Below, piece after piece: positions 4,608-27,349 of a stretch of 64,000 nucleotides of DNA (within the stretch, counting starts at the first letter, position 1; each line of letters opens with the position of its first letter). The stretch comes from a bacterium (GTDB lineage Bacteria; JAHJDO01), in NCBI GenBank assembly GCA_030652805.1, contig JAUSPT010000100.1:8378-72377 (forward strand). Reading direction: 5' to 3'. The notes under the pieces are model-generated. The model had not been told where the DNA came from and did not search any database. It saw nothing but the letters and a program-made list of their open reading frames with translations. The position numbers and the translations under genes are program-made.

Positions 4608-4611
4608 CTCC

Positions 4612-4687: not shown

Positions 4688-4713
4688 AGGTTACAAAGCG
4701 GAAGCGTTGGCTA

Positions 4714-6833: not shown

Positions 6834-6847
6834 ATCTGTCTCCCTTT

Positions 6848-7660: not shown

Positions 7661-7674
7661 TTTTCCAACGACCT

Positions 7675-9551: not shown

Positions 9552-9691
9552 TTTGCTTTTTTTGCCAATTCCAAATCACTTAGAATATATCACAACAGGC
9601 TTCAATCGTCAATTCAGGCAAGGATTTTTTTAATTGAATAAATAACTAACCAAGGATAAACTAACAAATAAAAATAAGTTGAAGTAAATAT

Positions 9692-10132: not shown

Positions 10133-10816
10133 ATGCATATAGCAGAAAACTATCAAATAATTAGAGAAGAAATTCCAGACAACGTAACTATAGTTTTAGC
10201 AGGTAAGACAAGGACCAGAGAAGAGATTGAAGAGGTTATAGATGCTGGAGCGACAGACATTGGGGAAAATTATGTGCAGGAAGCTGAAAAAATGTATGAT
10301 TCTTTGGGTGAAAAAGCAAAAAAGATTAGATGGCACATGATAGGATATTTACAAAAAAACAAGATCAACAAAGCGCTTAGAATTTTTGATGTTATACAAA
10401 CAGTTGATTCTTTAGAAAAGGCAGTAGCTATTGATAAAAGAGCACAAGGGATAGGGAAAACAGTTTCCGTATATTTAGAAATAAACATTGGCAGCGAAGT
10501 GACAAAAGCGGGTGTAAAACCGGAGTATGAAGTTATTAAAAATTTAGTTAGAGAAATTGCAAAACTTGAACATTTGAGTTTAGAAGGCCTGATGACAATG
10601 TGCCCTCGATTGGGGGATCCCGAAGATTCGAGACCTTATTTCAGAAAAATAAAAGATGTTTTTGAAAGGGTAAAAATGATTAGTCTACCAAGAGTTAAAA
10701 TGGAGACATTATCTATGGGAATGTCAAATTCTTACAAGATAGCCATAGAAGAAGGAAGTAATATGATTAGATTAGGAACGGTTGTCTTTGGGGAGAGAAA
10801 TAATGCCCACTTATGA
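10133..10816 (+). CDS. yggS: YggS-family pyridoxal-phosphate-binding protein
   Basis: Length of 227 aa. VLAGKTRT (PLP lysine region), SMGMSNSYKIAIEEGSNMIRLGT C-terminal block. Confidence 0.85.
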   Translation: MHIAENYQIIREEIPDNVTIVLAGKTRTREEIEEVIDAGATDIGENYVQEAEKMYDSLGEKAKKIRWHMIGYLQKNKINKALRIFDVIQTVDSLEKAVAIDKRAQGIGKTVSVYLEINIGSEVTKAGVKPEYEVIKNLVREIAKLEHLSLEGLMTMCPRLGDPEDSRPYFRKIKDVFERVKMISLPRVKMETLSMGMSNSYKIAIEEGSNMIRLGTVVFGERNNAHL

Positions 10817-11030
10817 GTATGAGTGTTTAAAGTGTGGTTATGAATTTGAGAAATTTCAAAACATGAGTGACGAACCAGTTAAGAAATGTTCGAAATGTAA
10901 AGGGAATGTTAGAAGACTAATAGGTGCTGGAGCAGGAATTATATCCAAAGGATCATCACAGGATATACCATGTTGCGGAATGAATGCTGCCTGTGCCAAC
11001 GCCAAGTATTGCGAAGGATGCAAAACCTGA
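10803..11030 (+). CDS. FmdB-family zinc-ribbon protein with Cys-rich tail
   Basis: Canonical N-terminus MPTYEYECLKCGYEFE...CSKC. I chose the ATG at 10803 rather than the ORF-track start at 10782. The tail is PCCGMNAACANAKYCEGC. Confidence 0.75.
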   Translation: MPTYEYECLKCGYEFEKFQNMSDEPVKKCSKCKGNVRRLIGAGAGIISKGSSQDIPCCGMNAACANAKYCEGCKT

Positions 11031-11031
11031 T

Positions 11032-11661
11032 ATGTTAAGACAAATTTCTAAGGAATTAAAAAGGCATGTTCCGTTTACTATGTTTGGAGCCGTTACAGGC
11101 ATTATCATCATGGTTATAATGGTTTTTTCCCATGCTTCCAAGGAGGCTTCTAATGCAATTTTTTACACTTTGCATCCCACCCATGTTGTCTTGAGCGCGT
11201 TTGCAACAATATCTATGTATAAACTGCATGGAAAAGGCAAGCTCTGGGTGGCAATTCTTATTGGTTATACAGGCTCCATTGGAATAGCTACATTAAGTGA
11301 TGCTGTAATCCCTTACCTTGGAGGAGGTTTGCTTAATGTTCCAATGGAATTTCATGCGCCATTTATAGAGACTGCAAAGATGCCATTTATTGGAATTGCA
11401 AAATGGAAGATTGTGAACTCTGCAGCAGTACTTGGAATTGTAATCGGTTATTTAAAACCTAAAACTAAATTTCCGCATTTTGGACATGTTTTATTAAGTA
11501 CATGGGCATCCTTATTTGGTTTCACAGCGTTCGGCATAGCAAATTGGATTCCTTTACTTCCTTTTGTTTTTCTGTTTTTATTCCTCGCAGTTTGGCTACC
11601 CTGTTGTGTAAGTGATATTATATTTCCTCTTTTATTTGTAAAAGAAAATCAAGAAGATTAG
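11032..11661 (+). CDS. hypothetical polytopic membrane protein
   Basis: About 6 predicted TM helices. An in-frame ATG at 11032 starts 1 nt after the zinc-ribbon stop. No family name that I can support. Confidence 0.5.
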   Translation: MLRQISKELKRHVPFTMFGAVTGIIIMVIMVFSHASKEASNAIFYTLHPTHVVLSAFATISMYKLHGKGKLWVAILIGYTGSIGIATLSDAVIPYLGGGLLNVPMEFHAPFIETAKMPFIGIAKWKIVNSAAVLGIVIGYLKPKTKFPHFGHVLLSTWASLFGFTAFGIANWIPLLPFVFLFLFLAVWLPCCVSDIIFPLLFVKENQED

Positions 11662-11708
11662 AAAACGGGATGAAAAGCTTAATTGAGATGGCAGGAGGTA
11701 AATAAAAA

Positions 11709-11822
11709 GTGAATTGCGCTAATACAAAGGGAATATTCCGTATCATTCAGTCTATTCCTTCAAAAAAAGGCTGGTTGGAGCGTGATAAAAAGGAGGTGAT
11801 AGACGATGTTAGATCAAAATAA
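11709..11822 (+). pseudogene. possible remnant of a BRO-N/DinD-like gene
   Basis: The 37-codon frame reads NTKGIFRIIQSIPSKKGWL. It resembles the (F)R(L/I)IQSIPSPKAEPFK(L)WL block remembered from BRO-N/DinD-type proteins. It is truncated on both sides and overlaps the rhuM start. Confidence 0.25.
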
Positions 11823-12858
11823 ATCACAGCTTATTATTTACCAGACCGAAACAGGTGAAACTAAGATTGACGTGAGGTTCCAAGATGAAACGGTATGGCT
11901 GTCTCAACAGTTAATGGCAGAACTATTTCGGACAACCAAGCAAAACGTAAGTCTTCATATTAGAAATATTTATGAAGAAGAGGAATTGTCGCCTCAAGCA
12001 ACTGTCAAGGAATTCTTGACAGTTCAAAAAGAAGGCGAACGAAAAGTTAGACGTAAAGTAGAATTTTATAATCTCGATATGATTATATCTGTTGGGTATC
12101 GCATTAAGTCTAGGGTAGCAACTCATTTCAGACAATGGGCAACACGTCATTTAAGGGAATATATAGTTAAAGGGTTTGTTTTAGATGATGAGCGGCTTAA
12201 GAATCCGAATCAGCCGTTTGATTATTATGATGAGTTAATTAGACGTATTCAGGATATACGAACATCCGAACGGCGTTTTTATCAAAAAATCACAGATATT
12301 TATGCCACAAGCGTTGACTATGACCCAACAAATGAAATGAGTATTGATTTTTTTAAGACCGTTCAAAATAAGATGCATTGGGCGATTACAGGGAAAACCG
12401 CTGCAGAAATTATTCATAAAAGAGCAGACAGTAAGAAAGCAAATATGGGATTAACAAGTTGGCGGGGAGTAAAAATTCGCAAAGATGATGTAGAAATTGC
12501 GAAAAACTATTTAGACGAAAAAGAATTGATGGCTTTAAATAATTTAGTTGAACAATATTTGATTTTTGCAGAGGGACAGGCAATGAGACGTATTCCAATG
12601 TATATGAGAGGTTGGATTACTAAGTTGGATTCCTTTCTGCAACTCAACGAAAGAGAAATATTGATGCACGCAGGGAAAATATCGCATCAGATTGCCATGG
12701 AAGCCGCAGAGAAGGAATACGAAAAATATTCTAAAAAAAGACAGATTGCTTATGACAAAAGAGAAAATTCTTTTGATGTATTAGTTAACGAAACGAAGAA
12801 AATAGAAAGTAAAAAAGGGACACATACAATGTTAACATCAAAAATGGTCAGGGGATAG
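11806..12858 (+). CDS. rhuM: RhuM-family virulence/defence-island protein
   Basis: N-terminus LIIYQTETGETKIDVRFQDETVWLSQQLMAELF, and ISVGYRIKSRVATHFRQWAT, typical of RhuM family proteins. Confidence 0.8.
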   Translation: MLDQNKSQLIIYQTETGETKIDVRFQDETVWLSQQLMAELFRTTKQNVSLHIRNIYEEEELSPQATVKEFLTVQKEGERKVRRKVEFYNLDMIISVGYRIKSRVATHFRQWATRHLREYIVKGFVLDDERLKNPNQPFDYYDELIRRIQDIRTSERRFYQKITDIYATSVDYDPTNEMSIDFFKTVQNKMHWAITGKTAAEIIHKRADSKKANMGLTSWRGVKIRKDDVEIAKNYLDEKELMALNNLVEQYLIFAEGQAMRRIPMYMRGWITKLDSFLQLNEREILMHAGKISHQIAMEAAEKEYEKYSKKRQIAYDKRENSFDVLVNETKKIESKKGTHTMLTSKMVRG

Positions 12859-12878
12859 ACGCACCTGTTTGGTAATTG

Positions 12879-12905
12879 TTTGTAGGGGCACAATATCTTG
12901 TGCCC
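12879..12905 (+). repeat. hairpin repeat IR-L (TTTGTAGGGGCACAA-TATC-TTGTGCCC), followed by T7; probably also the rhuM terminator
   Basis: 8-bp stem GGGCACAA/TTGTGCCC. It is the exact reverse complement of 19465-19491. Confidence 0.85.
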
Positions 12906-12914
12906 TTTTTTTAT

Positions 12915-12952
12915 GTCATTGCGAAGAGCGAAGCGATGTGGCAATCTCTTCG
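12915..12952 (+). repeat. GTCATTGCGAAG... repeat module
   Basis: GTCATTGCGAAG is the reverse complement of CTTCGCAATGAC at 19763-19774. It has an internal CGAAGAG/CTCTTCG stem. Confidence 0.6.
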
Positions 12953-12970
12953 TAATTCTCCGATTTTCAT

Positions 12971-13004
12971 ATTGTAGGGGCGGGGCTTGCCCCCGCCCTT
13001 TTTT
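12971..13004 (+). repeat. second TTGTAGGGGC-type GC hairpin plus T6
   Basis: ATTGTAGGGGCGGGGCTTGCCCCCGCCC has a GGGCGGGG/CCCCGCCC stem. Same family as 12879-12905 and the four copies at 19465-19697. Confidence 0.7.
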
Positions 13005-13060
13005 CTTTATGATTTTGGGATGGTGGAGTATAATTGGAGTTTGAAAGAAGAAGAAAGACT

Positions 13061-14869
13061 ATGCCAAGAATAAAAGATATACCAAAAATTGATCGGCCAA
13101 GGGAAAAGTTTCTCAAAAAAGGGCCAGAGGCTCTTTCTAAAAGTGATCTTTTGGCAATCCTTTTAGGTAGTGGGATAAAGGGCAAAAATGTTAAACAGCT
13201 TTCAGAAAATATAATAAAAAAATTCGGTAAAAACTTTTTAAATATAACTGTTGATGATTTATTAAAAATTTCAGGAATTGGTCAGGCCAAAGCTTTGCAA
13301 ATCGCTTCTGCTGTTGCTTTAGTAAAAAGATATTATGACGAAAAAGAGCCAAAAAGAAATCTCGTTTTATCGGTCAATGACGCAATTGCTTTAACCTCTG
13401 ACTTAAAAGAAAAGAAAAAAGAATATTTGATTTGTCTTTACTTGAATGCAAGAAATGCTTTGCTGAAGAAGGATATTATATCAATCGGTACTCTTGATAA
13501 AAGCCTAATTCATCCAAGAGAAATTTTTGGTCCTGCCGTAGAATTGCGATCAGCAGGTATTATATTGGTTCACAACCATCCCTCAGGCGATCCGTCACCA
13601 AGCAAACAGGATATTGATATTTTTAACAAGATTATTGAAGCTGGCAAGATAATGGGAGTCAATATTATTGATATTATCATTATTGGCGACGATAAAATCT
13701 ACAGTTTTTTCAAAGATTTACAGCAGGGTAAAAGCACTGATTATGTTTCAGACGGCATACAGTATTCGCTTTTTGATTTACTAGAAGCAGAAACATCTGC
13801 CTACACTCCCGCAACTACTAAAGTTAATAAAATTTATTTTTCACTAAAAAAAAGAAATATTGTAGGGAAATTTCAAATACAAAATCGACGTTTTCTTGGG
13901 AACAAATATAAACTTCTTGGTTTCATTGAGGATATTGTTAATGAAAAATGCAATGGATTTAATTCCTTTTGCGATATATTTGCTGGTACTGGCGTTGTAG
14001 GCGAGCGGTTTAATGAAAAAGATATAAAAGTTATCAGCAATGATTTATTATTTAGCAATTACTTCCCTCTAAAAACTTTTCTTGGCTCTACACAAATAAA
14101 CTTGGATACTCTCAAAGAAAAAATTGATTTATTGAATGACTTAAAAGTCAATCAAGACAATTATTTTTCTATTCACTACGGTGATACTTATTTTACCTTG
14201 GAGAATGCAAGAAAAATAGGTGTCATTAGAGAAAAGATTGAAGAACTTGCAAGCAATAAAGATGAAAAAGCCGCACTTATAACTGCCTTGCTATACGCTA
14301 CCGATAAAGTTGCAAATACAGTTGGACACTATGACGCATATAGAAAAAAATTAGATACAATACAGCCAATACAGCTTTTAGTGCCTGACATTGCTTTAGA
14401 TAGTAACAGCAATAATGAAGTTCTACGAGAAGATGCGAATTTACTTATTCGAAAAATATCTTGTGATGTTTTATATATGGATCCGCCTTACAATTCGCGC
14501 CAGTATTGTGATGCTTATCATTTGCTAGAGAATCTTGCAACTTGGAAAAAACCGCAGGTGTATGGAAAGGCAAAAAAAATGGATAGGTCTCGTATAAAAA
14601 GCGATTACTGTTTGAAAGCCGCCATGAGAGCATTTAATGATTTAATTAAAAATGCAAACTGTAAACATATTTTAATTTCGTATAATAATACTGGTGAATC
14701 AAAAGACGGAAGATCAAACGCGCGTATAAAGGATGAAGAGATTATAAATATACTCAAAAATAAAGGGGATGTTGAAATTTTCGAAAGAGATTATAAAGCT
14801 TTTACAACAGGCAAAAGTAATGGTAATGGAAACACTGAACGTGTCTTTTACTGTAAAGCAACAAAATAA
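13061..14869 (+). CDS. fusion protein: RadC-like JAB domain (N-terminal) + FokI-type D12-class N6-adenine DNA methyltransferase (C-terminal)
   Basis: RadC part: MPRIKDIPKIDRPREKF, HhH ISGIGQAKALQI, JAB motif HNHPSGDPSPSKQD. MTase part: RRFLGNKYKLL, FAGTGVVG, DPPYNSRQY..YHLLE, ILISYNN. It is one uninterrupted frame. I chose the ATG at 13061. Confidence 0.8.
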   Translation: MPRIKDIPKIDRPREKFLKKGPEALSKSDLLAILLGSGIKGKNVKQLSENIIKKFGKNFLNITVDDLLKISGIGQAKALQIASAVALVKRYYDEKEPKRNLVLSVNDAIALTSDLKEKKKEYLICLYLNARNALLKKDIISIGTLDKSLIHPREIFGPAVELRSAGIILVHNHPSGDPSPSKQDIDIFNKIIEAGKIMGVNIIDIIIIGDDKIYSFFKDLQQGKSTDYVSDGIQYSLFDLLEAETSAYTPATTKVNKIYFSLKKRNIVGKFQIQNRRFLGNKYKLLGFIEDIVNEKCNGFNSFCDIFAGTGVVGERFNEKDIKVISNDLLFSNYFPLKTFLGSTQINLDTLKEKIDLLNDLKVNQDNYFSIHYGDTYFTLENARKIGVIREKIEELASNKDEKAALITALLYATDKVANTVGHYDAYRKKLDTIQPIQLLVPDIALDSNSNNEVLREDANLLIRKISCDVLYMDPPYNSRQYCDAYHLLENLATWKKPQVYGKAKKMDRSRIKSDYCLKAAMRAFNDLIKNANCKHILISYNNTGESKDGRSNARIKDEEIINILKNKGDVEIFERDYKAFTTGKSNGNGNTERVFYCKATK

Positions 14870-14871
14870 CT

Positions 14872-16689
14872 ATGAAAAAACCTTGGTCAATAACAACAAC
14901 ACTTCGGAATCCTGAAAGATTAAGAAATTTCTTAACTGTTTTACAGCAGCTAGAAAATCTTGAATGGAATTTGGAAAATCAAAAGAAATACCAAATTCTC
15001 TTAATCAAAAACAGAATTTATGGATATGGAAGCGTGCAATTTTATAATGGATTATTCCAAGAACAAATTGATTTGATAGATGATCAAACAAAAGAAATCC
15101 CTTTTGGAAAAGCAGAAGAAATTTTTAATACAAAAAACTATGAAGACTCAGCCATGAGAGGAAGGCAGTCAATAAATCCTCTCAAAAAAATTGGGCTAGT
15201 TTCCATAAAAGATAAAAAAATATTCATAACAAGTTTGGGGAAGTCATTTTTAAAAGATGATTTCGATTTTGGAGAAATATTTTTTAGAAGTTTTATAAAA
15301 TGGCAAATCCCGAATCCTGACAGCAGTGATTATAAACTTGAAGATGGATATGATATAAAACCATTTATAGGAGTTTTGCATCTTATTCAAAAAGTTAATG
15401 AAAAGTCTTTAAAGTTAGGGAAAAAAGCAAAAGGTATTAGTAAAGGGGAATTTTCTTTATTTGCCCCAACTCTCGTAACTTTTTCAAATATAGATTGTTA
15501 TGCTAAAAAAATTATTAAATTAAGAAAGAAAATGGAAGAAAAAACCAAACAAGAACAAAAAACGATTTTTAATAATTATAAGAAAGTTTTTGCACAAGAA
15601 TTTTTGGAATCATCAAATGTGGAAGAAACAAACAAACTCTTACAAAATCTAAAAGATTATGGAGATAATGCAATAAGGTATTTTCGTTTAACTCGCTACA
15701 TTTATATTCGTGGTGGCGGATTTTATATTGATTTAGAACCAAGAAGATCAATTGAAATTGAAAATTTACTCAGCTTTGATAATGGACAATCAAAAACCTT
15801 TAAAAATAAAGAAGAATATTTAGACTATATTGCTGACATTTCACAACCAAAACTGTCTTGGGAAACAAAAGAAAAATTTATTGAAATTATTTCTAAACTT
15901 CTAGAAGACATAAAATCTTACGAAGAACAATTAAACATAACCTCAAGAGAAATTTTAGATTTTAAAGATTTGGAAGAAGATTGTCTAAAAAACTATATTA
16001 CAGAACTAAGACAATATAGAAGAGAATTACAAGACAAAGAAAATCACTTAAAATCACAAGATATTGAACAAATTGATGAATATATAAAGAATCTCGAAAA
16101 TATTTTTGATTTTGAAGATAGACCAATTTTACTGGAAAAATTATCTGCCCTTGGATTAAACGCTTTAAACGATGCTTTAAAAATCAAACCAAATTACCCT
16201 GTTGGGGATGACAATGAGCCGACTTTTACAGCGCCAGCCAATACGCCAGATATTGAATGTTTTTATGAGAATTTTAACGCAATTTGTGAGGTAACAATGC
16301 TTACGAGCAAGGATCAGTGGTATAATGAGGGGCAACCAGTAATGAGGCATTTGAGAGATTTTGAAAGCAAACATCAAGACAAAAAATCTTATTGTTTATT
16401 TATAGCTCCAAGACTTCATCGGGATACAATCAATACGTTTTGGACAGCTATAAAATATGAATACGAAGGAAGTCCACAAAAAATAATTCCGTTATCAATA
16501 AATAATTTTGTATTACTCTTAAAAATCTTAGTTCAAATAAAATTAGAGAATAAGTTTTTAAGACACAATGAACTTGCACGTTTGTATGATGAAATACTGG
16601 ATTCCTCAAAATTTTTTAATAACTCTAATAAGTGGTTAAGAAATATTCCCAACGCCATTTCTTCATGGCAAAAAGGCCTTAGTTTTTAA
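14872..16689 (+). CDS. AlwI/BstNBI/PleI/MlyI-family type IIS restriction endonuclease or nicking enzyme
   Basis: 605 aa. Block similarity, from memory, to N.BstNBI: TTLRNPER, IKWQIPNP, RYFRLTRYI, PDIECFYENFNAICEVT, YCLFIAPRL, IIPLSINNF. Separated from both flanking MTases by 2-nt gaps. Confidence 0.65.
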   Translation: MKKPWSITTTLRNPERLRNFLTVLQQLENLEWNLENQKKYQILLIKNRIYGYGSVQFYNGLFQEQIDLIDDQTKEIPFGKAEEIFNTKNYEDSAMRGRQSINPLKKIGLVSIKDKKIFITSLGKSFLKDDFDFGEIFFRSFIKWQIPNPDSSDYKLEDGYDIKPFIGVLHLIQKVNEKSLKLGKKAKGISKGEFSLFAPTLVTFSNIDCYAKKIIKLRKKMEEKTKQEQKTIFNNYKKVFAQEFLESSNVEETNKLLQNLKDYGDNAIRYFRLTRYIYIRGGGFYIDLEPRRSIEIENLLSFDNGQSKTFKNKEEYLDYIADISQPKLSWETKEKFIEIISKLLEDIKSYEEQLNITSREILDFKDLEEDCLKNYITELRQYRRELQDKENHLKSQDIEQIDEYIKNLENIFDFEDRPILLEKLSALGLNALNDALKIKPNYPVGDDNEPTFTAPANTPDIECFYENFNAICEVTMLTSKDQWYNEGQPVMRHLRDFESKHQDKKSYCLFIAPRLHRDTINTFWTAIKYEYEGSPQKIIPLSINNFVLLLKILVQIKLENKFLRHNELARLYDEILDSSKFFNNSNKWLRNIPNAISSWQKGLSF

Positions 16690-16691
16690 CT

Positions 16692-17480
16692 ATGAGTATG
16701 AAAAAAAATATTATTTACAACGATGATTGCATAAAAATACTTAATACAAAAATTGATAAAAAATCAATTGATCTTATTTTTGCTGACCCTCCTTATAATC
16801 TTTCTGGCAATGGGTTGAAGTGGGAAGGAAATAAAACGGGTGGGGACTGGTATATGGTAAATGAAGAATGGGACAAAATGACCGCTCCTGAATATATGCA
16901 ATTTACAAGAAAGTGGATTGGAGCTTGCCATAAAATTTTAAAAGATACTGGTTCAATTTATATTGCTTGTAGTTATCACAATATTGCTGAAGTAATGATT
17001 ATTTTAAAACAGCTGGATTTTAAGATAAATAATATCATTACTTGGTACAAAACAAATGCTATGCCAAATATGACAAGGCGAATCTTTACTCATTCTACAG
17101 AATTTATTGTTTGGGCGGTAAAAGGTAAAAAGTGGATTTTTAATTACGAGGAGCTTAAAAAGATTAATCCGGAAAAACAAAAAGATGGGTCGTTAAAACA
17201 AATGCGAGATGTGTGGTCTTTGCCTTTGGTGCAAGGTAAAGAAAGATTGAGAGGGAAAGATGGTCGAGCTTTGCATCCAACACAAAAACCAGAGGAGGTG
17301 CTTAAACGAATTATTGTTGCCTCTTCTAATAAAGGCGATTTAGTTTTAGATCCATTTTTAGGAAGCGGCACAACTGCGATAATAGCAAAAAAAATGGGAA
17401 GAAATTGGATTGGAATTGAGAGAAGCAAAAAGTATATAGAGATGGCAAAGAAGCGGATTGATGTGAAATTAAAGAAATAA
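16692..17480 (+). CDS. beta-class N6/N4 DNA methyltransferase (DpnA/MboI-type)
   Basis: Motif IV comes first (IFADPPYNL) and motif I last (DPFLGSGTT). Also ITWYKTNAMPN, FTHSTEFIVWA and HPTQKPEE. Confidence 0.85.
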   Translation: MSMKKNIIYNDDCIKILNTKIDKKSIDLIFADPPYNLSGNGLKWEGNKTGGDWYMVNEEWDKMTAPEYMQFTRKWIGACHKILKDTGSIYIACSYHNIAEVMIILKQLDFKINNIITWYKTNAMPNMTRRIFTHSTEFIVWAVKGKKWIFNYEELKKINPEKQKDGSLKQMRDVWSLPLVQGKERLRGKDGRALHPTQKPEEVLKRIIVASSNKGDLVLDPFLGSGTTAIIAKKMGRNWIGIERSKKYIEMAKKRIDVKLKK

Positions 17481-17566
17481 AACATAGGGGCTAATTATGA
17501 ACAAAATAAAACTTGATCTTACATATTGCTATGGAATAAAAATCGTTGAAAGTGGAATAAATTAAC

Positions 17567-19273
17567 ATGAGAATCAAACAATTAATACTTAAAGATTTCG
17601 GCCCTTTCAATCGCTACAAGATATCATTTGTAGAAGAAGATGAAATCTGCATGCTGCTGACAGGAAAGAACAATGAAGGAAAATCTAGCATAATAAATGG
17701 ATTAAAACTCCTTAATGATGCAACAAAGGTCATAAACAAGAAAAAACAGGAAATAAAGATTGACGGAGACTACTATTACAAACTTCTTCAACAAGACACA
17801 GAAAATTTTCTTGTTGGTAGAATGATTCATAACTATAAAGAAAATAGGGCGGAGATTATTGGAATCTTTCAAGGTGGTTTGGAAATTACCGTATACTTAG
17901 ACCCTATCGAAAATATGATATTTGCAAATTTTGAAGGTTGCATCCCTGTTGATGTACATAACATTTTCGGTTTCATACCTCCCCTTGGACCACTGAATGA
18001 GAACGAAGACATAATTACAAAATTATCCTATCTCAAAGCAAGTATTGATACTTCTCTTGCACCTCGACATCTTAGAAACCACTTTTATCAAATTCTCACT
18101 AAAGACGAATTGGCTCTTGTTAGGCAACTTATAAAGAGGTCTTGGGTAGGCATTGAACTACTTGACTATGAGCTTAACTATCAACAAGGGAAAATATATT
18201 GCTATTACAAAGAGGGTGGTATTGGTCGTGAGATTTCTTGGGCAGGTCAAGGGCTTCAAGTTTGGTTCCAAATTATTACTCATGTTGTCAGACTCAGGGA
18301 ATCTTCAATCCTAATACTTGATGAGCCAGAAATTAATCTCCATCCAGAAAAGCAAAACGATATTATAAGAATATTAAAAGATTATTATCATGGAAGTATT
18401 ATAATCGCAACTCATTCCATTGAATTAATGAACAATGTTAGTGTTAGCCATATCATTAATGTCCAAAAAAAACACAACAAGCCAAAAATTAAATCAACAA
18501 AGGATAGGGTTTACTTAAACTTGGTACGGTCTCAAATTGGAAGCAATTTTAATCTAATTGCTTCACAATTCGAAGAGTTTGATATTATTGTTTTCACCGA
18601 AGATACATTTGATTTTGACATACTTCAACAGATAGCATTGGATTATAAAATAAGGAAAAAAGCTTTCAATATTCCAATTTATGGTTTTAGCGAATTTAAT
18701 AAATGTATCTCCTATAAGCACGCATACAAGACACTAATTGGAAAGGACATAGACTATACCCTTGTCCTGGATAGGGACTACTATCCGGAGGAATATCTAA
18801 AAAAAGTTACAGAAATCCTTAAAACCTCAAGCATTAAGGTCGTTTTTACGCCAGGAAAAGAAATTGAGAACTTATTTCTATCACCGGATATTCTAACTGC
18901 GTTAATTCCAGAAACATCTCATAAAAAATTTTCAAAGATTTGGGATGAAATGTTTGAATCACTTCGTCTGGATTGCTATGGAAGTTATCTCACACTTCAT
19001 GGCCAATTCTTAGATCCTAAATTAGACACAAAAACTATTGCAACACGTTACACTCCTGTTTTTGAAAAATGCTGGAGTGATACTAAGAATAGGCACAAGA
19101 TTGTTTCAGGAAAAGAAGCGTTGAAGGTGTTAAGAAAATTTTACAGAGATGAGACTAAAAGTAATCTAAGCCAAAATTTACTTATTGAAAAACTTATTCA
19201 AATAGAAAATGAAAACATCAAGCAATTCATTGAAGAAGTTTACCAATTAAGGAAAACCAGGGGACGTTCATAA
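17567..19273 (+). CDS. ABC-type ATPase fused to a DUF4435/OLD-Toprim-like domain (OLD-family or merged PARIS AriA-AriB-like)
   Basis: Walker A GKNNEGKSS (aa 33-41), signature-like SWAGQGLQ (about aa 224), Walker B ILILDEPE (about aa 248), ATHS. C-terminal half has IIVFTEDTFDFD, LVLDRDYY and GKEIENLFL in the order expected for Toprim/DUF4435. Confidence 0.6.
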   Translation: MRIKQLILKDFGPFNRYKISFVEEDEICMLLTGKNNEGKSSIINGLKLLNDATKVINKKKQEIKIDGDYYYKLLQQDTENFLVGRMIHNYKENRAEIIGIFQGGLEITVYLDPIENMIFANFEGCIPVDVHNIFGFIPPLGPLNENEDIITKLSYLKASIDTSLAPRHLRNHFYQILTKDELALVRQLIKRSWVGIELLDYELNYQQGKIYCYYKEGGIGREISWAGQGLQVWFQIITHVVRLRESSILILDEPEINLHPEKQNDIIRILKDYYHGSIIIATHSIELMNNVSVSHIINVQKKHNKPKIKSTKDRVYLNLVRSQIGSNFNLIASQFEEFDIIVFTEDTFDFDILQQIALDYKIRKKAFNIPIYGFSEFNKCISYKHAYKTLIGKDIDYTLVLDRDYYPEEYLKKVTEILKTSSIKVVFTPGKEIENLFLSPDILTALIPETSHKKFSKIWDEMFESLRLDCYGSYLTLHGQFLDPKLDTKTIATRYTPVFEKCWSDTKNRHKIVSGKEALKVLRKFYRDETKSNLSQNLLIEKLIQIENENIKQFIEEVYQLRKTRGRS

Positions 19274-19464
19274 AAAACATGAAAAACAACCCCAATGCCG
19301 ACACCAGCGCATTGGAGGCAGAAATTGCCCATCCGGGCCTAACCGAGGAAGAGATTGGGGGGTATTAAATGAGCAAAATAATGGCAGAAAAAAGGAAACC
19401 AGGCGACAAGGTAACCGTGACGAAGTAAAAGGACACAGCACCCTTCCTCCAAAATTCATATTAA

Positions 19465-19491
19465 GGGCACAAGATATTGTGCCCCTACAAA
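19465..19491 (-). repeat. hairpin repeat IR-R, exact inverted copy of 12879-12905
   Basis: GGGCACAAGATATTGTGCCCCTACAAA is the reverse complement of TTTGTAGGGGCACAATATCTTGTGCCC, with 27/27 identity. Confidence 0.85.
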
Positions 19492-19529
19492 ACCCCCAAT
19501 CAACCCAAAGAACGACACAACAAAGCAAA

Positions 19530-19554
19530 GGGACAGGCATGCCAGTCCCCTACA
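19530..19554 (-). repeat. GGG..CCCCTACA-type hairpin repeat
   Basis: GGGACAGGCATGCCAGTCCCCTACA. Palindromic stem with one A/A mismatch and the same CTACA tail. Confidence 0.65.
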
Positions 19555-19587
19555 TAAAAATCACAAAAGAAACCAATCTCTTGGAAT

Positions 19588-19615
19588 GGGCGAATACACG
19601 GATTCGCCCCTACAA
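19588..19615 (-). repeat. GGG..CCCCTACAA-type hairpin repeat
   Basis: GGGCGAAT-ACACGG-ATTCGCCC plus CTACAA tail. Confidence 0.7.
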
Positions 19616-19640
19616 TCTGGAAACAGGGATAATTTTATTT

Positions 19641-19783
19641 TTCGTAATGACAGAATGGGGATATTCAAACGGGCAGACGCAAGGGCTGCCCCTACAATAA
19701 CCGCCAGCTAAAGCAGGCGGTTGAGGGGGAGGGGACAAACGAGATTGTTTCGGGATTTCATCCTTCGCAATGACAGAATGGGC
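19641..19783. repeat. two direct copies of TCG(T/C)AATGACAGAATGGG (19641-19660 and 19763-19783)
   Basis: TTCGTAATGACAGAATGGGG and CTTCGCAATGACAGAATGGGC. The second copy is inverted relative to GTCATTGCGAAG at 12915. Confidence 0.6.
19671..19697 (-). repeat. GGG..CCCCTACAA-type hairpin repeat
   Basis: GGGCAG-ACGCAAGGG-CTGCCC plus CTACAA tail. Confidence 0.65.
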
Positions 19784-19879
19784 AAATAGTTTTGAACGAA
19801 TGCAGATAAATTGTTTGTCTAAATATTCTGAGTATTCTATAATGTAAAAAAGTTTCTAAGGCATACGGAAAGAATAACT

Positions 19880-20857
19880 ATGATAAAATCAAAGAAAGAG
19901 ACTCCTGTATCTATATATGATGTAATTATTATAGGAGCTGGGCCGTCCGGTCTGACAGCAGCGATATATACTTCAAGAGCAAGGTTAAAAACTCTATTGC
20001 TTGAGGGTCTTTCTGTGTCCAGTCAAGCTCTTGTGACTGATAAGATAGAAAATTATCCTGGATTTCCCGAAGGAATCAATGGATTTGATCTGATAGATAA
20101 GTTCAAAAAACAGGCAAAACTCTTTGGCGCAGAATTCGCGGCAGAAGATGTGAATAATATCCACGTCTCTAAACAGCAGAATATTAATAATATCTGGCAG
20201 GTTGAGGTAAAGGACAAAACATATCATTCACTATCAGTGATTATCGCTTCTGGTGCCCGGTTCAGAACATTGGGGATAGAGGGAGAGAAAAGGTTGCTTG
20301 GAAAGGGAGTGTCCTATTGCGCTGTGTGTGATGGAGCATTCTTCAAAGACAAGGATGTTGTTGTGGTCGGAGGAGGTGATGCGTCAGCAGAAGAAGCATT
20401 ATTCTTAACCAGATTTGCCAAAAAAATTACCATGGTACACAGAAGAGATAGATTAAGAGCGGCAAAAATTCTGCAAGAAAGGATATTTTCAAATAAGAAG
20501 ATAAGCATAGTCTGGAATTCAGTCATAAATGAGATTCTAGGCGAGACTAAGGTTCGGGGAGTTAGAATAACAGATCTCAAAGCAAAGAAAGAGACAGATA
20601 TTTCTTGCGATGGTGTGTTTATCTTTGTTGGACTTGTACCAAATACAAATTTTGTCAAAGACATAATTAAGCTGGATGAAAATGGGTATGTTATTGTTGA
20701 TAGCAAGATGAGAGCATCACGCGATGGAATATTTGCGTGTGGCGATTGCCGGCAAACCATCTTGCGGCAAGTAGTAACTGCCTGTGGAGATGGCGCATTT
20801 GCCGCATTTTCAGCCCAGCAGTACGTGGAGGACTTAAAAGGTACTGCATACAAATGA
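19880..20857 (+). CDS. trxB: thioredoxin-disulfide reductase
   Basis: GAGPSGLTAAIY FAD motif, redox-active CAVCDG, second Rossmann VVVGGGDSA-like block (VVVGGGDASAEEA). Confidence 0.9.
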   Translation: MIKSKKETPVSIYDVIIIGAGPSGLTAAIYTSRARLKTLLLEGLSVSSQALVTDKIENYPGFPEGINGFDLIDKFKKQAKLFGAEFAAEDVNNIHVSKQQNINNIWQVEVKDKTYHSLSVIIASGARFRTLGIEGEKRLLGKGVSYCAVCDGAFFKDKDVVVVGGGDASAEEALFLTRFAKKITMVHRRDRLRAAKILQERIFSNKKISIVWNSVINEILGETKVRGVRITDLKAKKETDISCDGVFIFVGLVPNTNFVKDIIKLDENGYVIVDSKMRASRDGIFACGDCRQTILRQVVTACGDGAFAAFSAQQYVEDLKGTAYK

Positions 20858-22743
20858 GTTCAATAAAAGCTACTTTCAAACCAGGAAATCGTTCGGTTTA
20901 TGTGCTGTCCAATACTTCAATACTGGAAGCTGCGGGCAGAACGGGTATTGTTATTACTTCTCCATGTGGAGGGCAGGGAACATGTGGAAAATGCAGGGTT
21001 CATATTATTGAAGGTAATGTTCCTCCAACCTCTACAGAAGAAAAAATATTATCTAAAGAAGATATATCAAGCGGCGTGAGGCTTGCATGTCAGAGTAAAA
21101 TAACGTCAAACTGTATTATAGATATTCCTCAGACTTCCATGGAATCCGCTCAGCAGATTCTTACAAAAGGCATACAGAGCAAGAAGGAAATTAAGCCAAG
21201 TGTTTGGAAAAAATATGTAGAGTTACAAAAGCCAACGCTTGCCAGTCCACAAGCCAATCTCAATCTAATAAGGGAAGCCGTTAATACAGATTTTCATGCA
21301 GATATATATGTTATTCGCAACCTTTCAGTAATCTTGAATGAGTCAGATTATAAGGTTACTTGTGTCTTTTCTGATGGAGAATTAATAAGCGTTGAAAAAG
21401 GGGATACAACAGGAACGGATTATGGAGTGGCATTTGATATTGGTACAACAACGCTTGTAGGCACACTTCTTGACCTCAATACAGGAGAGGAACTTGCGCT
21501 TGTCTCAAGAACAAATCCACAGATAATTTATGGAGATGATGTTATCTCCCGGATAAACTTTACAATAACAGATAAGGACGGCTTGGATAAGCTTTTTTAC
21601 AAAATAAGCAGAGAAATGAATGATATGATCTCTCAATTATCAAATGAGTCAGGAATAAATATTCACAACATATACAAGGTTGCAATTGCAGGTAATTCTA
21701 CAATGCAGCACATCTGTCTAAGGGTTACACCAAAAAGTCTTGCTAAAATTCCGTTTAATCTAGTGATTAGAGAACCTGTAGAAGTTAAAGCAAAGAAAAT
21801 AGGCATTGATATAAATCCGGACGCCCTTGTATATGTTTTGCCCAGCATTGCAGGTTTTGTTGGAGGAGACACAGTTGCGTGCATACTGGCAACACAATTA
21901 CACACAAAAAAAGCCCTTAAATTAATTATAGATATAGGTACAAATGGAGAAATAGTACTTGGCAATAATAAGAAAATAATTGCTGCTTCTACAGCTGCAG
22001 GTCCGGCATTTGAAGGAGCGCGCATATCTCAGGGGATGAGAGCAACTATTGGAGCGATAGAAAAGGTAATTATCAATGAGGACGTTGAATACAATGTTAT
22101 TGGAAATGTAGTACCATTTGGAATATGCGGTACCGGTCTAATTGACGGAGTGGCAGAATTATTAAAGGCAGGAGTAATTGATGAGACTGGCAGGATAGTT
22201 TCTCAAATCGAATACAAAGGGAATGAGAATATCCGAAGACGAATCATAGAGACTGAAAAAGGGAATGACTTCCTGCTTGTTGACGGACATGCTGCCAGAA
22301 GCAAGCGCCCTATTTTTATCTCGCAAAAAGATGTGCGCGAACTTCAGCTTGCAAAAGCGGCTATTGCAGCAGGAATAAAAATACTGCAGAAGGAATTGAA
22401 TGTTACAGATAAAGATATCTCTGAAATATATCTTGCGGGAGCGTTTGGCAATTTTATTCGCCGCACAAATGCAAAGAGAATAGGTTTAATCCCAAACATT
22501 CCTTCAGAGAAGATTGCTTTTGTAGGAAATGCGTCATCTTCCGGAGCAAAACTTGTTCTATTATCCTATGATATGGAAAAGGAAGCGGAACATATTTCTA
22601 CACAAACTAATTATATAGAGTTGTCTGCCAGAAGCGATTTTAATGAAAACTTTATGAATGAAATAGTGTTTCCCCTTCTCTGTCAAGAGAAGGGGATAGG
22701 GGATGAGTTAAAAGAAAGGAGAACAAAGTGGAAATCAAAGTAG
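20854..22743 (+). CDS. 2Fe-2S ferredoxin + ASKHA (DUF4445) protein, RACo-like corrinoid reductive activase family
   Basis: N-terminal plant-type ferredoxin block [19 protein letters not shown] phosphate motifs [10 protein letters not shown] and [12 protein letters not shown] chose the ATG at 20854, which overlaps the trxB stop (ATGA). Confidence 0.75.
22669..22710 (+). repeat. REP-like element, copy 1 (TTTCCCCTTCTCTGTCAAGAGAAGGGGATAGGGGATGAGTTA)
   Basis: Contains a CCCCTTCTCT/AGAGAAGGGG palindrome. An inverted near-copy lies at 30859-30899. It lies inside the last 25 codons of the RACo-like ORF. Confidence 0.7.
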
Positions 22744-23045
22744 ATGACACAAATTTTAAGCAGGAAGTATTAGAATCAGATATTCCTGTCCTTGTGGATT
22801 TTTGGGCAGAGTGGTGCGGCCCCTGCCGTATGATTGCTCCGGCAGTTAAAGAGATAGCTGAAGAATATGATGGTAAGTTAAAAGTCTGTAAATTAAATGT
22901 TGATGAAGCGCCAGGAATATCTTCAGAATACGGCATTATGAGCATACCTACTTTAGCTATTTTTAAAGATGGTGCTGTAGTAGACAAGGTTGTAGGTGTA
23001 GCTTCCAAGACAGAACTTGTTTCTAAAATTACGCCTTATGTTTAA
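22728..23045 (+). CDS. trxA: thioredoxin
   Basis: [10 protein letters not shown] active site, 105 aa. GTG start preceded by AAAGGAG. Confidence 0.9.
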
Positions 23046-23961
23046 TACTTCTATTTTTGGACCTGTCCCCTCAAGAAGATTGGGATTTTCACTGGGAGTA
23101 GATCTGGTCCCTTTCAAGGTATGCAGTCTTAATTGTATCTATTGCCAGCTTGGGAAAACAACATGCAAGACAGTTGCAAGAAAAGAATATGTATCCTGTG
23201 ATAAGATCTTAACTGAATTAGAAAAAGTATTAATAAATTCAAAAACCATTGATTATATTACCTTATCTGGCAGTGGGGAGCCTACACTCAACTCAAAGAC
23301 GGGCGAAATTATAAGAAAAATAAAAGAGATGACAACTATCCCTGTAGCAGTTATTACTAATGCTACACTGCTTAGTGATGATGCATTAAAAAAAGACCTG
23401 CTGCCTGCGGATTTGGTGGTGCCTTCTCTTGATGGAGCGACACAAGATGTATTTGAGAAAGTAAATAGGCCCTGTACATCTTTGAAAATAGAAAAGATAA
23501 TCAGAGGAATGATTGATTTTAGTAAAGCGTATGAAGGTAAAATATGGCTTGAAATAATGCTTGTTAAAGGCATAAATGAAAATGAGGATGAATTAAATGC
23601 TTTAAAGGCTGCAGTAGGTCAAATTAAGCCTGATAAAATTCAGCTAAATACTCCTGTTCGTCCTCCGTCCGAAGAATATGTAAGGGTATTAAGCAGCAAA
23701 AAGCTTTTTGAAATAAAAGAATTTTTTGGGAATAAGTGTGAGATTATCGCCAAGTTTACGAAAAAGAGACATAAGGCATATCTCAAGGATGTAGAGGATG
23801 AAATTCTTACTCTGATCAATCGTCGTCCTGTAACGTCTAAGGATATATCGTCTTCCTTGGGTTTGCACATTAATGAGGTTATAAAATATGTAGAAGATTT
23901 GGAAAAGCAAAAGAAAATAAGCTCAAAAATCTATCAGGGAAAGAGATATTTTCAAAAATGA
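23038..23961 (+). CDS. radical SAM protein (COG0731-like) with C-terminal winged-helix-like tail
   Basis: [14 protein letters not shown] followed by CSLNCIYCQ (CxxxCxxC). I chose the ATG at 23038. Confidence 0.7.
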
Positions 23962-24674
23962 ATCTGATAATAAAGGGATTTATTCAAACCTCGCTTCTTG
24001 ACTGGGATGCTAAAATCGTCTCCACACTTTACACGCCGCACTGCAATTTTCGATGTCCTTACTGTCAAAACACTGGGCTTATTATCAATCCCGAAAAGTT
24101 AGAAACCATTTCTTTTAGAGTAATTAAGGAGTATTTGCGCAAAAATAATAGATGGATTGATGGAATATGTTTAACAGGCGGCGAGCCATGTATGTATGAA
24201 GATTTGCCGAAATTTATTCAAAAAATACGAGAGCTTGATATAATGGTGAAGCTTGACACTAATGGGGGATTTCCCGATATGCTTGCAGAGGTAATTGAGA
24301 GAAAATTAGTGAATTACATAGCTATGGATATAAAGGCGGCTCTGGATTTCACGTCATATTCCAAATCTACTGGTATCAAGAATCCCTTGATTTTGGAGAA
24401 AGTTAAGAATAGTATTAGATTAATAATGAAATCTGATATTGATTATGAGTTCAGGACTACTGTAGTGCCGACTTTACATGAAGAAGAAGATATATTGAGA
24501 ATAGCTAAATTTATCAAAGAGGCAAGAAAATATGCTCTGCAAAATTTTTCAGCCCAAGGAGAGATATTAGACCCAAAATTTAAGAAAATTAAACCTTATC
24601 CAATAGAAAAACTGAATAAGATCCAGAAACTGGTTTCTCCTTATGTAGAGAAGTGTGTGGTGAGAGGAAGTTAA
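23958..24674 (+). CDS. radical SAM activating enzyme, NrdG/PflA-like (anaerobic RNR activase family)
   Basis: SLLDWDAKIVSTLYTPHCNFRCPYCQN, then LTGGEP. Confidence 0.7.
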   Translation: MNLIIKGFIQTSLLDWDAKIVSTLYTPHCNFRCPYCQNTGLIINPEKLETISFRVIKEYLRKNNRWIDGICLTGGEPCMYEDLPKFIQKIRELDIMVKLDTNGGFPDMLAEVIERKLVNYIAMDIKAALDFTSYSKSTGIKNPLILEKVKNSIRLIMKSDIDYEFRTTVVPTLHEEEDILRIAKFIKEARKYALQNFSAQGEILDPKFKKIKPYPIEKLNKIQKLVSPYVEKCVVRGS

Positions 24675-24678
24675 AAAT

Positions 24679-25161
24679 ATGAATAAAATAGCGATATATC
24701 CAGGTACTTTTGATCCCATAACTCACGGACATATTGACCTTATCAAAAGAGGTATTAAAACATTTGATAAATTAGTTGTTGCAGTTGCGCATAATCCTGA
24801 CAAAAATCCCCTTTTTACGGTTTCTGAAAGAGTGGACATGTTAAAGGAAATCACAAAGGATATGAAGAATGTGAAAGTTGACGATTTTGGAGGGCTTCTT
24901 ATTGATTATGTACGCATTAAAGGGGCAAATGTTGTTTTAAGAGGCATTCGTGCCTTTTCTGATTTTGAGTATGAATTTCAGATGGCATTGATTAATCGAA
25001 AACTATCTCCGGAAACAGAGACAATATTTATGATGCCAAATGAGTCCTTTTCCTATGTCAGTTCCAAGATAATAAAGCAAATTGCATCCATGAACGGAGA
25101 TATCTCCAAATTTGTTCCAGAAGTTGTAGAAGAATATCTGAAGAAGAAATTAAATTCCTAA
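24679..25161 (+). CDS. coaD: pantetheine-phosphate adenylyltransferase
   Basis: IAIYPGTFDPITHGHIDL, 160 aa. Confidence 0.9.
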   Translation: MNKIAIYPGTFDPITHGHIDLIKRGIKTFDKLVVAVAHNPDKNPLFTVSERVDMLKEITKDMKNVKVDDFGGLLIDYVRIKGANVVLRGIRAFSDFEYEFQMALINRKLSPETETIFMMPNESFSYVSSKIIKQIASMNGDISKFVPEVVEEYLKKKLNS

Positions 25162-26481
25162 CCCATTGCTGGGCAGGCGGTTTATAATATCTTTCAGGGT
25201 TAACTTATCAAGGATCTCTGTTTCAGCTTTCCTTGCATCAGAAAGAATATCTTTTAGATATTTTGTGGTGTTATCCTCTGTAATTTTAGGTATGTTTTCT
25301 CCATATCCTCTAAATACATCCAAAACTTTTCCGGCAGTAATTGCTTCTATAGAGAATGAGGGTTGATATGAAGACTCTCTGCCGCTAACCTCGTTAATCA
25401 ACCCGCCTTCCGCAAGCTGGAAAAGGATCTGATTTACAAGTCTTATTGATACATCAAGCTTTTTGGAGAGTTGAGCAGCTGTTAGTGGCTGTTTCGCTTT
25501 ATAAAAGTTACTGGCTATACTTATCATAATTCTTAGTCCAAGAAGTTCTTTGCATTTTGGACTTATAGATAATGATTTTCCTTCTCTTGTGTATGTTCTC
25601 ACATTTTGATGCGCAAAGGATATTTCTGCACCAAATAGGACTATTAGCCAGCTAATGTAAAGCCAGATAAGAAAAACCGGAATAGAAGCAAATGTCCCAT
25701 AGATTGCACTATACCTTGAAACACCTATCTGAAAGTGAATGTGTCCCCATTGAGCAAACTGCCACAAAGTTCCTCCAATAATCCCTGCTGTTAAGGCAGA
25801 CGAGAATTTCACTTTTGTATTAGGCATAAACATGTAGATAAAAGTGAACACAAGCCACATAGATAAATATGGAGTCATTCTTAACAGTTGATGCATGAGA
25901 ACTCCGATGAATTCCATACCAAGTATTTTGTTGACCAGACTACTATTTGATAGAAAGGCATTTACGCCTGTTGTACAAAGCGCGAGAATCGGACAGATTA
26001 AAATTACGCTCAGATAGTCAGTAAATTTTCTGAATATATTTCTGGATTTTTTAATTCCCCAGATATCGTTAAAGGATCTCTCAATGGTCCCCAACACAAT
26101 AATTAATGTCCATATTAAAAAGACGAGTCCTACTATACCCAGAGTTTTTAGACTAGTTTTACTGGCAAGATCAATAATTTTCGTTACAATCTCTTGTGTT
26201 ACTGCAGCCTTCTCAAGCACTATGCTTTTCACTGCATCAAATGCGCCAAAGGCTTTTGATATAGAAAAGATGAAGGCTAAAAAAGGGATTATAGTCAGAA
26301 GCGTTACATAAGTTAGTCCAAAAGCCCTGAGCTGACATTTATCTGTAATAAATCCTCTTGCAACCATATATCCCATTTTTAGAATATTATATGCCCATTT
26401 TTTAAGATAGGACAGGCCTGAGAGCTCCCTCTCCCACAGATCCTTTAAAATAAAGTTTGTTATTCTTTTTATTATGCTCAT
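25150..26481 (-). CDS. YihY/BrkB-family membrane protein with C-terminal winged-helix extension
   Basis: Polytopic membrane core with a typical YihY layout. The C-terminal ~120 aa are soluble and contain LTAAQLSKKLDVSIRLVNQILFQLAEGGLI. Confidence 0.7.
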   Translation of the reverse strand: MSIIKRITNFILKDLWERELSGLSYLKKWAYNILKMGYMVARGFITDKCQLRAFGLTYVTLLTIIPFLAFIFSISKAFGAFDAVKSIVLEKAAVTQEIVTKIIDLASKTSLKTLGIVGLVFLIWTLIIVLGTIERSFNDIWGIKKSRNIFRKFTDYLSVILICPILALCTTGVNAFLSNSSLVNKILGMEFIGVLMHQLLRMTPYLSMWLVFTFIYMFMPNTKVKFSSALTAGIIGGTLWQFAQWGHIHFQIGVSRYSAIYGTFASIPVFLIWLYISWLIVLFGAEISFAHQNVRTYTREGKSLSISPKCKELLGLRIMISIASNFYKAKQPLTAAQLSKKLDVSIRLVNQILFQLAEGGLINEVSGRESSYQPSFSIEAITAGKVLDVFRGYGENIPKITEDNTTKYLKDILSDARKAETEILDKLTLKDIINRLPSNGLGI

Positions 26482-26566
26482 AGCTCTACCATCTACTTAT
26501 TAATATATGTTATTATAACAAGTTATGCAATAATTTGTTATAATATAGTGGCTTTTTTAAAATTGA

Positions 26567-27247: not shown

Positions 27248-27349
27248 AAAACAATATATTCCCAAAAAAGACAATATATGTCGAGACTTAATTAGTGTTA
27301 TGTGTATAATTTTAAAATACAATAAAAACTTTTGAAAGGAGAACTGGTT

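Follow-up and report, generated by a model that had tools for sequence, protein, structure and literature searches.

The window analysed here (64,000 nucleotides of contig JAUSPT010000100.1, from the bacterial assembly GCA_030652805.1) contains an open reading frame (ORF) at 17567..19273 on the + strand, which begins with ATG and encodes a single polypeptide of 568 amino acids. On balance, this gene probably specifies a stand-alone OLD-family enzyme of class 1 architecture, in which an ABC ATPase is fused in cis to a Toprim nuclease whose action would be switched by ATP. The protein is a divergent, distinct clade within the known OLD/PARIS family of anti-phage nucleases, and its homology and context make it a plausible defence gene. 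The initial annotation had likewise read the polypeptide as an ABC ATPase followed by an OLD/DUF4435-type Toprim nuclease, which is borne out by profiles, models, Foldseek and invariant residues, and each motif that it listed was located at the expected place. Its further suggestion of a merged PARIS gene did not hold, as discussed below. The gene and the features of its first half are as follows.

17567..19273, + strand: whole gene, ABC ATPase plus Toprim nuclease, OLD family, class 1-type architecture (ORF and translation, homologues, AlphaFold2 model with a predicted local distance difference test score (pLDDT) of 88, Foldseek match to TsOLD 6p74)
17567..18526, + strand: ABC ATPase domain, residues 1-320, compact, without a coiled-coil or AriA-type insertion (Pfam, PADLOC and PDB profile matches)
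17663..17686, + strand: Walker A (P-loop) GKNNEGKS, residues 33-40, with K39 (G33, N35, G38 and K39 invariant in 55 relatives)
18059..18082, + strand: APRHLRNH, residues 165-172, in the helical lobe of the ATPase (conservation)
18236..18259, + strand: ABC-signature-like SWAGQGLQ, residues 224-231 (conservation)
18308..18355, + strand: Walker B (D252, E253) and D-loop LHP (H259), ILILDEPEINLHPEKQ, residues 248-263 (D252 and E253 invariant; aligned to TsOLD 'IIEEPEMYLHP')
18407..18418, + strand: H-loop ATHS, residues 281-284, with H283 (invariant; aligned to TsOLD 'STHS')

The ATPase half is recognized directly by Pfam, with AAA_21 (E = 2e-17) and AAA_15 (E = 2e-11) above their cut-offs and an additional AAA_27 match (2e-6). 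The PADLOC models that match it are AriA, NsnB, AbiLi, mad3, PtuA, Old, and GajA, and its profile matches in PDB are UvrA, PtuA, Rad50, and AriA. Walker A, Walker B and the H-loop are intact, with K39, D252, E253, and H283 invariant among 55 superfamily sequences of 22-68% identity, a set in which E345, D402, D404, K431, E432, E434, and K516 of the second half are also invariant. In TsOLD, the class 1 OLD of Thermus scotoductus, E276 and H283 are catalytic and ATPase activity requires H310 (PMC7049728); the D-loop and H-loop histidines of TsOLD are also present here. Within the signature-like motif, W225, A226, G227, Q228, G229, and Q231 are invariant in the family, and G227 and G229 in the superfamily. 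This strict conservation of WAGQG differs from the degenerate ABC signature that has been reported for class 1 OLDs (PMC7049728). We also noticed a basic motif, APRHLRNH, at the spot where other OLD proteins, Rad50 and AriA carry dimerisation or coiled-coil insertions. R167, H168, R170, and N171 do not vary within the close family, and in the superfamily the last two still reach at least 90% conservation; the motif may serve in nucleic-acid binding or sensing. Some homologues carry names such as EcfA2, which are misannotations; NCBIfam gives only far sub-threshold ABC transporter and ABC-F matches, on the Walker B region.

In the full-length model, the segment from Walker A to Walker B contains no more than three short helices, and the distance from K39 to D252 is 213 residues, slightly above the earlier estimate of about 205. 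Counted to the Walker B glutamate, it is 214 residues here versus 242 in TsOLD (K34 to E276). The protein had been described as far shorter than AriA and AriB combined, which is true of that comparison; as an oddity it does not stand, since this size is normal for class 1 OLD (TsOLD has 528 amino acids), and the idea of an unusually compact protein was rejected on the same comparison.

The features of the second half are given below.

18578..18886, + strand: Toprim core, residues 338-440, four parallel strands (DSSP of the models, Foldseek, profile to AriB)
18599..18601, + strand: E345, Toprim catalytic glutamate at the end of strand 1 (FTED), within IIVFTEDTFDFD, residues 340-351 (invariant, alignments)
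18770..18778, + strand: D402-R403-D404, Toprim DxD at the end of strand 3, in LVLDRDYY, residues 399-406 (D402 and D404 invariant)
18857..18871, + strand: K431-E432-I-E434-N435, third acidic motif after strand 4, in GKEIENLFLS, residues 430-439 (invariance)
18911..19240, + strand: C-terminal helical bundle, residues 449-558, with invariant K516 (helices in the models)

AlphaFold models were obtained for the full-length protein (pLDDT 88) and for the C-domain (pLDDT 91, predicted TM-score 0.87). They contain four parallel strands alternating with helices (β-α-β-α-β-α-β) at residues 340-427, followed by the helical bundle at residues 449-558, and in the C-domain model the four strands are contiguous, with the bundle after them. 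The conserved acids lie at the strand ends of the models, E345 following strand 1, D402/D404 strand 3 and E432/E434 strand 4, and this predicted placement is the Toprim arrangement; K431 and K516 are candidates for the catalytic Arg/Lys, which class 1 OLDs take from a loop preceding the last Toprim helix. The initial annotation had read the three acidic motifs as an acidic strand, a DxD and an E..EN motif; they are the Toprim Glu, DxD and E-x-E-N, in register with both AriB and TsOLD. E345 aligns to E26 of AriB in 'LLVEGRHD', whose E26A substitution is a published dead mutant, and to 'LLVEGYGD' of TsOLD; D402-R403-D404 aligns to 'DRE' of AriB and 'DED' of TsOLD; E434-N435 aligns to 'LENYFFNP' of AriB, with KEIEN(L/Y) set against HSLENY. 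In this last motif N435 is conserved to at least 90%, and K431, E432 and E434 do not vary. Mean column identity is similar in the ATPase (0.69) and Toprim (0.68) parts and lowest in the helical bundle (0.54).

A Foldseek search of PDB with the whole protein gave TsOLD (6p74, E = 8.6e-14) as the top match, with PtuA, Rad50 and GajA among the other top matches. With the C-domain, the top three were AriB (8v46_D; E = 7.8e-3, probability 0.99, TM 0.43), the Toprim domain of Burkholderia pseudomallei OLD (BpOLD, 6nk8) and AriB again (8ux9_A). The C-domain match spans 298 columns and the whole, or nearly the whole, of AriB, its helical part included. Among viral structures, nothing significant was found for the C-domain, the best match being an RloB-like protein (3.8e-2). 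The comparison with AriA/AriB, GajA and class 1 OLD structures that the initial annotation called for thus puts TsOLD first for the whole protein and AriB first for the C-domain, and finds the insertions of AriA absent.

Several results weigh against this reading of the second half. Pfam and PADLOC searches with the C-terminal 241 amino acids alone returned neither a Toprim nor a DUF4435 match (a CARF_HEPN match, the sole one, was discarded as spurious), and the window protein as a whole has no match to Pfam OLD-like_TOPRIM (PF20469) or DUF4435 (PF14491). The proposed profile searches therefore came out positive for AAA_21 and AAA_15 and negative for the two nuclease profiles. By structure, too, the C-domain is matched weakly (E = 8e-3, TM 0.43, root-mean-square deviation 10 Å). 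The clustering of the acidic residues in three dimensions is suggested by their strand-end positions only. A C-domain profile of the close family did not find Toprim among PDB sequences and gave only chance matches to Csm2 and cellobiose epimerase, and a broader superfamily profile was needed for this reason.

A hidden Markov model of the C-domain was run against 1.84 billion representatives (at 50% identity) and yielded 787 proteins. Its more distant members (E = 1e-13 to 1e-28) are likewise fusions of an ATPase and a C-domain, of 575-608 amino acids, and through their Toprim region they match the PADLOC models Old (to 3.5e-31), AriAB (to 4.8e-28) and GajA. They also match Pfam OLD-like_TOPRIM just below threshold (17-21 bits versus a cut-off of 23.2), as well as DUF3226, again just sub-threshold. 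A superfamily profile of 55 sequences (A4) identified TsOLD (1.8e-20) and GajA (3e-17) in PDB, and its alignment to TsOLD runs without a break from Walker B through "LFVEG" (TsOLD LLVEGYGD) to "LDRD" (TsOLD VVHDED). A profile of the C-domain only (A5) matched AriB best (E = 0.0047), over AriB residues 18-142 and with the catalytic motifs in register. Weak matches to DUF4435 (6 of 23, best E = 0.0028) and DUF3226 (4 of 23) were also seen among homologue C-domains. The initial annotation would have given up its proposal had the C-terminal half shown no Toprim/DUF4435 profile match or fold; the protein lacks a profile match of its own, and the Toprim fold is present in the models. On the combined evidence the Toprim assignment is secure, with each single C-domain match being weak.

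Among the known systems, class 1 OLD (TsOLD, P2 Old, and Vc OLD of Vibrio cholerae) is the closest in architecture, being a single gene without a conserved partner, and TsOLD is the best full-length match by both fold and superfamily profile. The OLD family is defined by an ABC ATPase with intact motifs and a Toprim Glu/DxD in one polypeptide, and this architecture is found here, with the Pfam OLD-like_TOPRIM score below threshold. Class 2 OLD has a helical insertion within Toprim and class 1 does not; in our protein a helical bundle of 110 residues follows the Toprim core. Besides this bundle and the conserved signature, a C-domain closer to AriB than to any OLD Toprim and a high conservation across phyla set the family apart from the class 1 OLDs described so far. 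Gabija GajA, a class 2 OLD, is also an ATPase-Toprim fusion and is among the top fold and profile matches, but its profile alignments end shortly after the Toprim Glu, and its helicase neighbour GajB is absent from the window locus and from the other loci examined. That the gene has no GajB-like partner had been stated before and is correct, as neither a helicase nor a reverse transcriptase lies near it. In comparison with the retron-associated class 3 OLD, there is no reverse transcriptase among the neighbours, and an Rfam search over 9000-28000 gave no match at the gathering level and found neither an msr/msd-type (retron) RNA nor another non-coding RNA. Finally, class 5 Cran1 has a conserved operon with a membrane protein and is inherited vertically in one order, whereas here the neighbours vary and the carriers belong to more than 12 phyla.

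Both catalytic sets are intact and invariant (K39, D252/E253, H259, H283 and WAGQG in the ATPase; E345, D402, D404, E432 and E434, plus K431 and K516, in Toprim), and both centres are under strong constraint. In the mechanism that we propose, the N-terminal ABC ATPase would act as an ATP-dependent switch or sensor for the Toprim nuclease to which it is fused. Two ATPase heads would close around ATP, with the signature-like WAGQG acting in trans, as expected from the biochemistry of ABC ATPases and OLD (PMC7049728, PMC10568477), and with H259 and H283 as the putative D-loop and H-loop residues. An infection cue would then change ATP binding or hydrolysis, the nucleotide state would license Toprim, Toprim would cut nucleic acid by two-metal catalysis, and the outcome would be growth arrest or a block to phage replication. 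A class 1 OLD acting alone in defence is known from Vc OLD (PMC12392090). As to the substrate, P2 Old and AriB cut tRNA anticodon stems (PMC12445682, PMC11464382), and DNA is nicked or cut by TsOLD, Vc OLD, GajA and Cran1. AriB being the best match of the C-domain, we lean slightly, at a little under even chances, to a tRNA anticodon stem; nicking of DNA, as by TsOLD, Vc OLD and GajA, is nearly as probable.

An extension of this proposal, which we regard as unlikely, would place the family midway between class 1 OLD and PARIS in evolution. A minimal ABC ATPase with a retained canonical signature would gate in cis a Toprim of the AriB type, which may be a tRNA nuclease; the family would spread as a single gene in uncultured bacteria and archaea and would monitor a conserved host component or nucleotide state. 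If this were true, the high conservation would imply that such a conserved component or state is sensed rather than fast-evolving phage proteins, and the family would constitute a new OLD class, activated by a logic of its own.

The stand-alone reading of the gene also draws on the size and spread of its family. At least 460 protein clusters (90% identity) match the gene product; the best 120 are 51-74% identical to it (E < 1e-195) and 507-655 amino acids long, most of them 560-571. In data with one genome per species, 21 loci with a full or near-full-length match were found among 185,579 species, distributed over more than 12 phyla. The carriers include Bacteroidota, Planctomycetota, Verrucomicrobiota, Acidobacteriota, KSB1, Lentisphaerae, Latescibacterota, Gemmatimonadetes, Bacillota, Gamma- and Deltaproteobacteria, Ignavibacteria, Omnitrophica (80% identity) and, as the one archaeon, a member of Woesearchaeota. 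The identity of the Omnitrophica copy makes an Omnitrophota origin of the window probable. All 21 are metagenome-assembled genomes (MAGs) or uncultured isolates, and all family members seen here are of MAG or metagenome origin, from uncultured lineages. This patchy spread indicates horizontal transfer and not vertical inheritance. Three copies look disrupted: the Omnitrophica copy (L028, 8001-9700) has a frameshift near residue 358, the match in L021 (4538-6301) is split over two ORFs (4538-5617 and 5672-6301), and that in L026 (8001-9254) covers residues 1-378 only. These could be pseudogenes or MAG assembly errors.

An all-against-all comparison of the ORFs within 8 kb at 23 loci found that only the OLD-like gene itself is shared. 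Among 105 flanking proteins, mostly products of housekeeping genes, each Pfam family occurs at most twice, and PADLOC matches among neighbour proteins are scattered and mostly generic. The gene has no conserved partner and would work alone. The three closest relatives with enough flanking DNA have defence- or toxin-antitoxin (TA)-rich surroundings. One (L085) has a type IIG restriction-modification (R-M) gene and an EVE protein; in another (L086, contig k141_1071840), a 73%-identical homologue is followed by a dense TA island at 4886-9890, made up of three HicA/HicB pairs plus one MNT/HEPN pair; the third has SIR2-TPR and PIN genes. The loci of the other relatives are mixed in context, with one copy adjoining a PolX gene, and the Omnitrophica copy has no neighbour in common with the window.

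With respect to a defence role, further points stand on the opposing side. The majority of family members sit among housekeeping genes and not in defence islands. For a defence gene, conservation across phyla is high: 40 diverse members have over 100 invariant positions, and their column identity averages 59%. In addition, OLD-family proteins with non-defence or atypical roles are known, namely Cran1 (PMC12796447) and YbjD (PMC13261556). These points would favour a cellular role outside defence, for example in DNA repair or in chromosome or cell-cycle maintenance, for which the archaeal OLD-family ATPase Cran1 is a precedent and with which the identity of the best 120 homologues and the PolX neighbour would also agree. 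We consider such a role quite unlikely, because the gene is found in only 21 of the 185,579 species representatives, scattered over bacteria and one archaeon, because every locus has different neighbours and some copies are frameshifted or truncated, and because the DNA around the window copy and around the closest relatives is rich in R-M, TA or defence genes.

A true merged PARIS (AriAB) gene is very unlikely in our view. Its ATPase would sense Ocr-like anti-restriction proteins that attack the neighbouring R-M system and would free the AriB-like half to cut tRNA, which in PARIS is tRNA-Lys. Merged ariAB clades do exist and have an ATPase and a Toprim in one chain as here, AriB is the best structural and sequence match of the C-domain, and an R-M cassette of the same orientation ends 86 bp before the gene. 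The PADLOC AriAB model also covers residues 245-558, but it does so with 35.7 bits (E = 9.9e-10), over 44% of the model (330-633 of 694), and the Old, GajA and retron ATPase-Toprim models score similarly or better. DUF4435, absent from the window protein, stays below threshold in its relatives, and both PARIS-type models score far below family level. In AriA, Walker A and Walker B are about 350 residues apart (K39 to about residue 388), ~130 more than the 213 here, so the coiled-coil and the IS1/IS2 insertions that build its hexameric sensor and sensing pores are missing. With the hexameric scaffold logic not evident, and since the nuclease is fused to the ATPase and cannot be released, the release-of-effector logic of PARIS does not apply as such. 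TsOLD, moreover, is the best match of the whole protein, and R-M neighbours are not general in the family: among 29 other distinct loci (22 from genomes and 7 further ones from metagenomes), only L085 has an R-M gene in the examined flanks, of another type than that of the window and four genes away. The adjacency to R-M is not a trait of the family.

Returning to the stand-alone OLD-family reading, no branch of this widespread immune family is less well understood than the single-gene OLD nucleases. Clear defence phenotypes among them are limited to P2 Old and Vc OLD, and YbjD has an overexpression phenotype only, for which its Toprim is dispensable. What decides between DNA and tRNA as the substrate, and how the ATPase gates the nuclease, are questions for the field, and the present clade would offer a compact and highly conserved test case, with an AriB-like Toprim on a class 1-like ATPase, seen here in uncultured lineages only. 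In a RefSeq-based survey (Yang et al. 2025, PMC12796447), the OLD clades without a characterised member, among them U1-U10, number at least 11. The present clade resembles several of the U clades in being well separated and mixed bacterial and archaeal, differs from them in that its members come from MAGs and metagenomes, and was probably missed by RefSeq-based surveys. For annotation, labels such as "AAA family ATPase" or "EcfA2" hide the nuclease domain of such proteins.

The window locus itself comprises the following neighbouring features.

13034..17480, + strand: R-M cassette, upstream neighbour of the OLD-like gene (Pfam)
13034-14869, + strand: RadC-JAB/Dam-type methyltransferase fusion (RadC 6e-36, MethyltransfD12 3e-31)
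14872-16689, + strand: AlwI-family endonuclease (RE_AlwI 8e-83)
16692-17480, + strand: N6/N4 methyltransferase, second of the cassette (N6_N4_Mtase 1e-64)
12879..13002, - strand: left cluster of hairpins resembling repetitive extragenic palindromes (REP-like), hairpin plus CTAC (29-nt and 33-nt inverted pairs)
19463..19699, + strand: right REP-like hairpin cluster, inverted relative to the left one (repeats)

The cassette directly upstream had been noted in the initial annotation, and it indeed consists of an AlwI-type endonuclease and two methyltransferases. Further upstream, a RhuM-family gene (11806-12858) is situated immediately beyond the left repeat cluster; the downstream neighbour is a thioredoxin-reductase-like gene. 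The GC content is 0.27-0.33 across 13000-19300 versus 0.36-0.41 outside, and this low-GC island holds the R-M genes and the OLD-like gene. A perfect 29-nt inverted repeat brackets the island, with arms at 12879-12907 and 19463-19491 that both consist of a hairpin followed by CTAC, and so does a second, 33-nt pair at 79%. Because of the shared low-GC block and the bracketing inverted REP-like elements, the OLD-like gene and the AlwI-type R-M genes were probably acquired or rearranged as a single block in this genome. The association is specific to the window genome and not a property of the family. That the gene is a functional accessory of the R-M genes, forming one four-gene system with them, is highly improbable: the common strand, the 86-bp gap after the second methyltransferase, the common low-GC block and the repeats around all four genes are in its favour, but no R-M family recurs in the 22 genome loci, the single R-M gene of the 7 metagenome loci is the distant one of another type in L085, and the Omnitrophica copy shares no neighbours with the window.

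The sequence GCCCCTACAA occurs five times in the 64 kb, solely at the two borders of the block, versus 0.05 expected. The REP-like units consist of a hairpin, GGGCACAA-GATA-TTGTGCCC or GGGCGGGG..CCCCGCCC, followed by CTACAA. GTAG next to a palindrome is the signature of REP/RAYT elements. No transposase gene adjoining the REP-like elements was seen in the window. No other family locus was found to have the motif, so that it characterises the window genome and not the gene family. Two sub-threshold Rfam matches at 12944-13040, SorX (26 bits) and Termite-leu (25 bits), coincide with the REP-like hairpins and are in all likelihood spurious. Within the 600 bp of non-coding DNA 3' of the gene, a 33-nt direct repeat (19632-19664 and 19755-19787) carries TTCG(T/C)AATGACAGAATGGG twice, and a related sequence, 'cttcgcaatgaca', is located at the left border (about 12917-12930, - strand); this motif may be part of the same composite repeat unit. 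A promoter and terminator scan around the gene performed no better than on shuffled sequence. Two short ORFs in the repeat-rich spacer, 19268-19540 (- strand, 90 amino acids, without a Pfam match) and 19479-19700 (+ strand, 73 amino acids), are probably not genes. The first gene of the cassette encodes an unusual-looking fusion of 611 amino acids, in which a RadC-like JAB domain (with a UPF0758 N-terminal domain) is joined to a D12-class N6-adenine methyltransferase.

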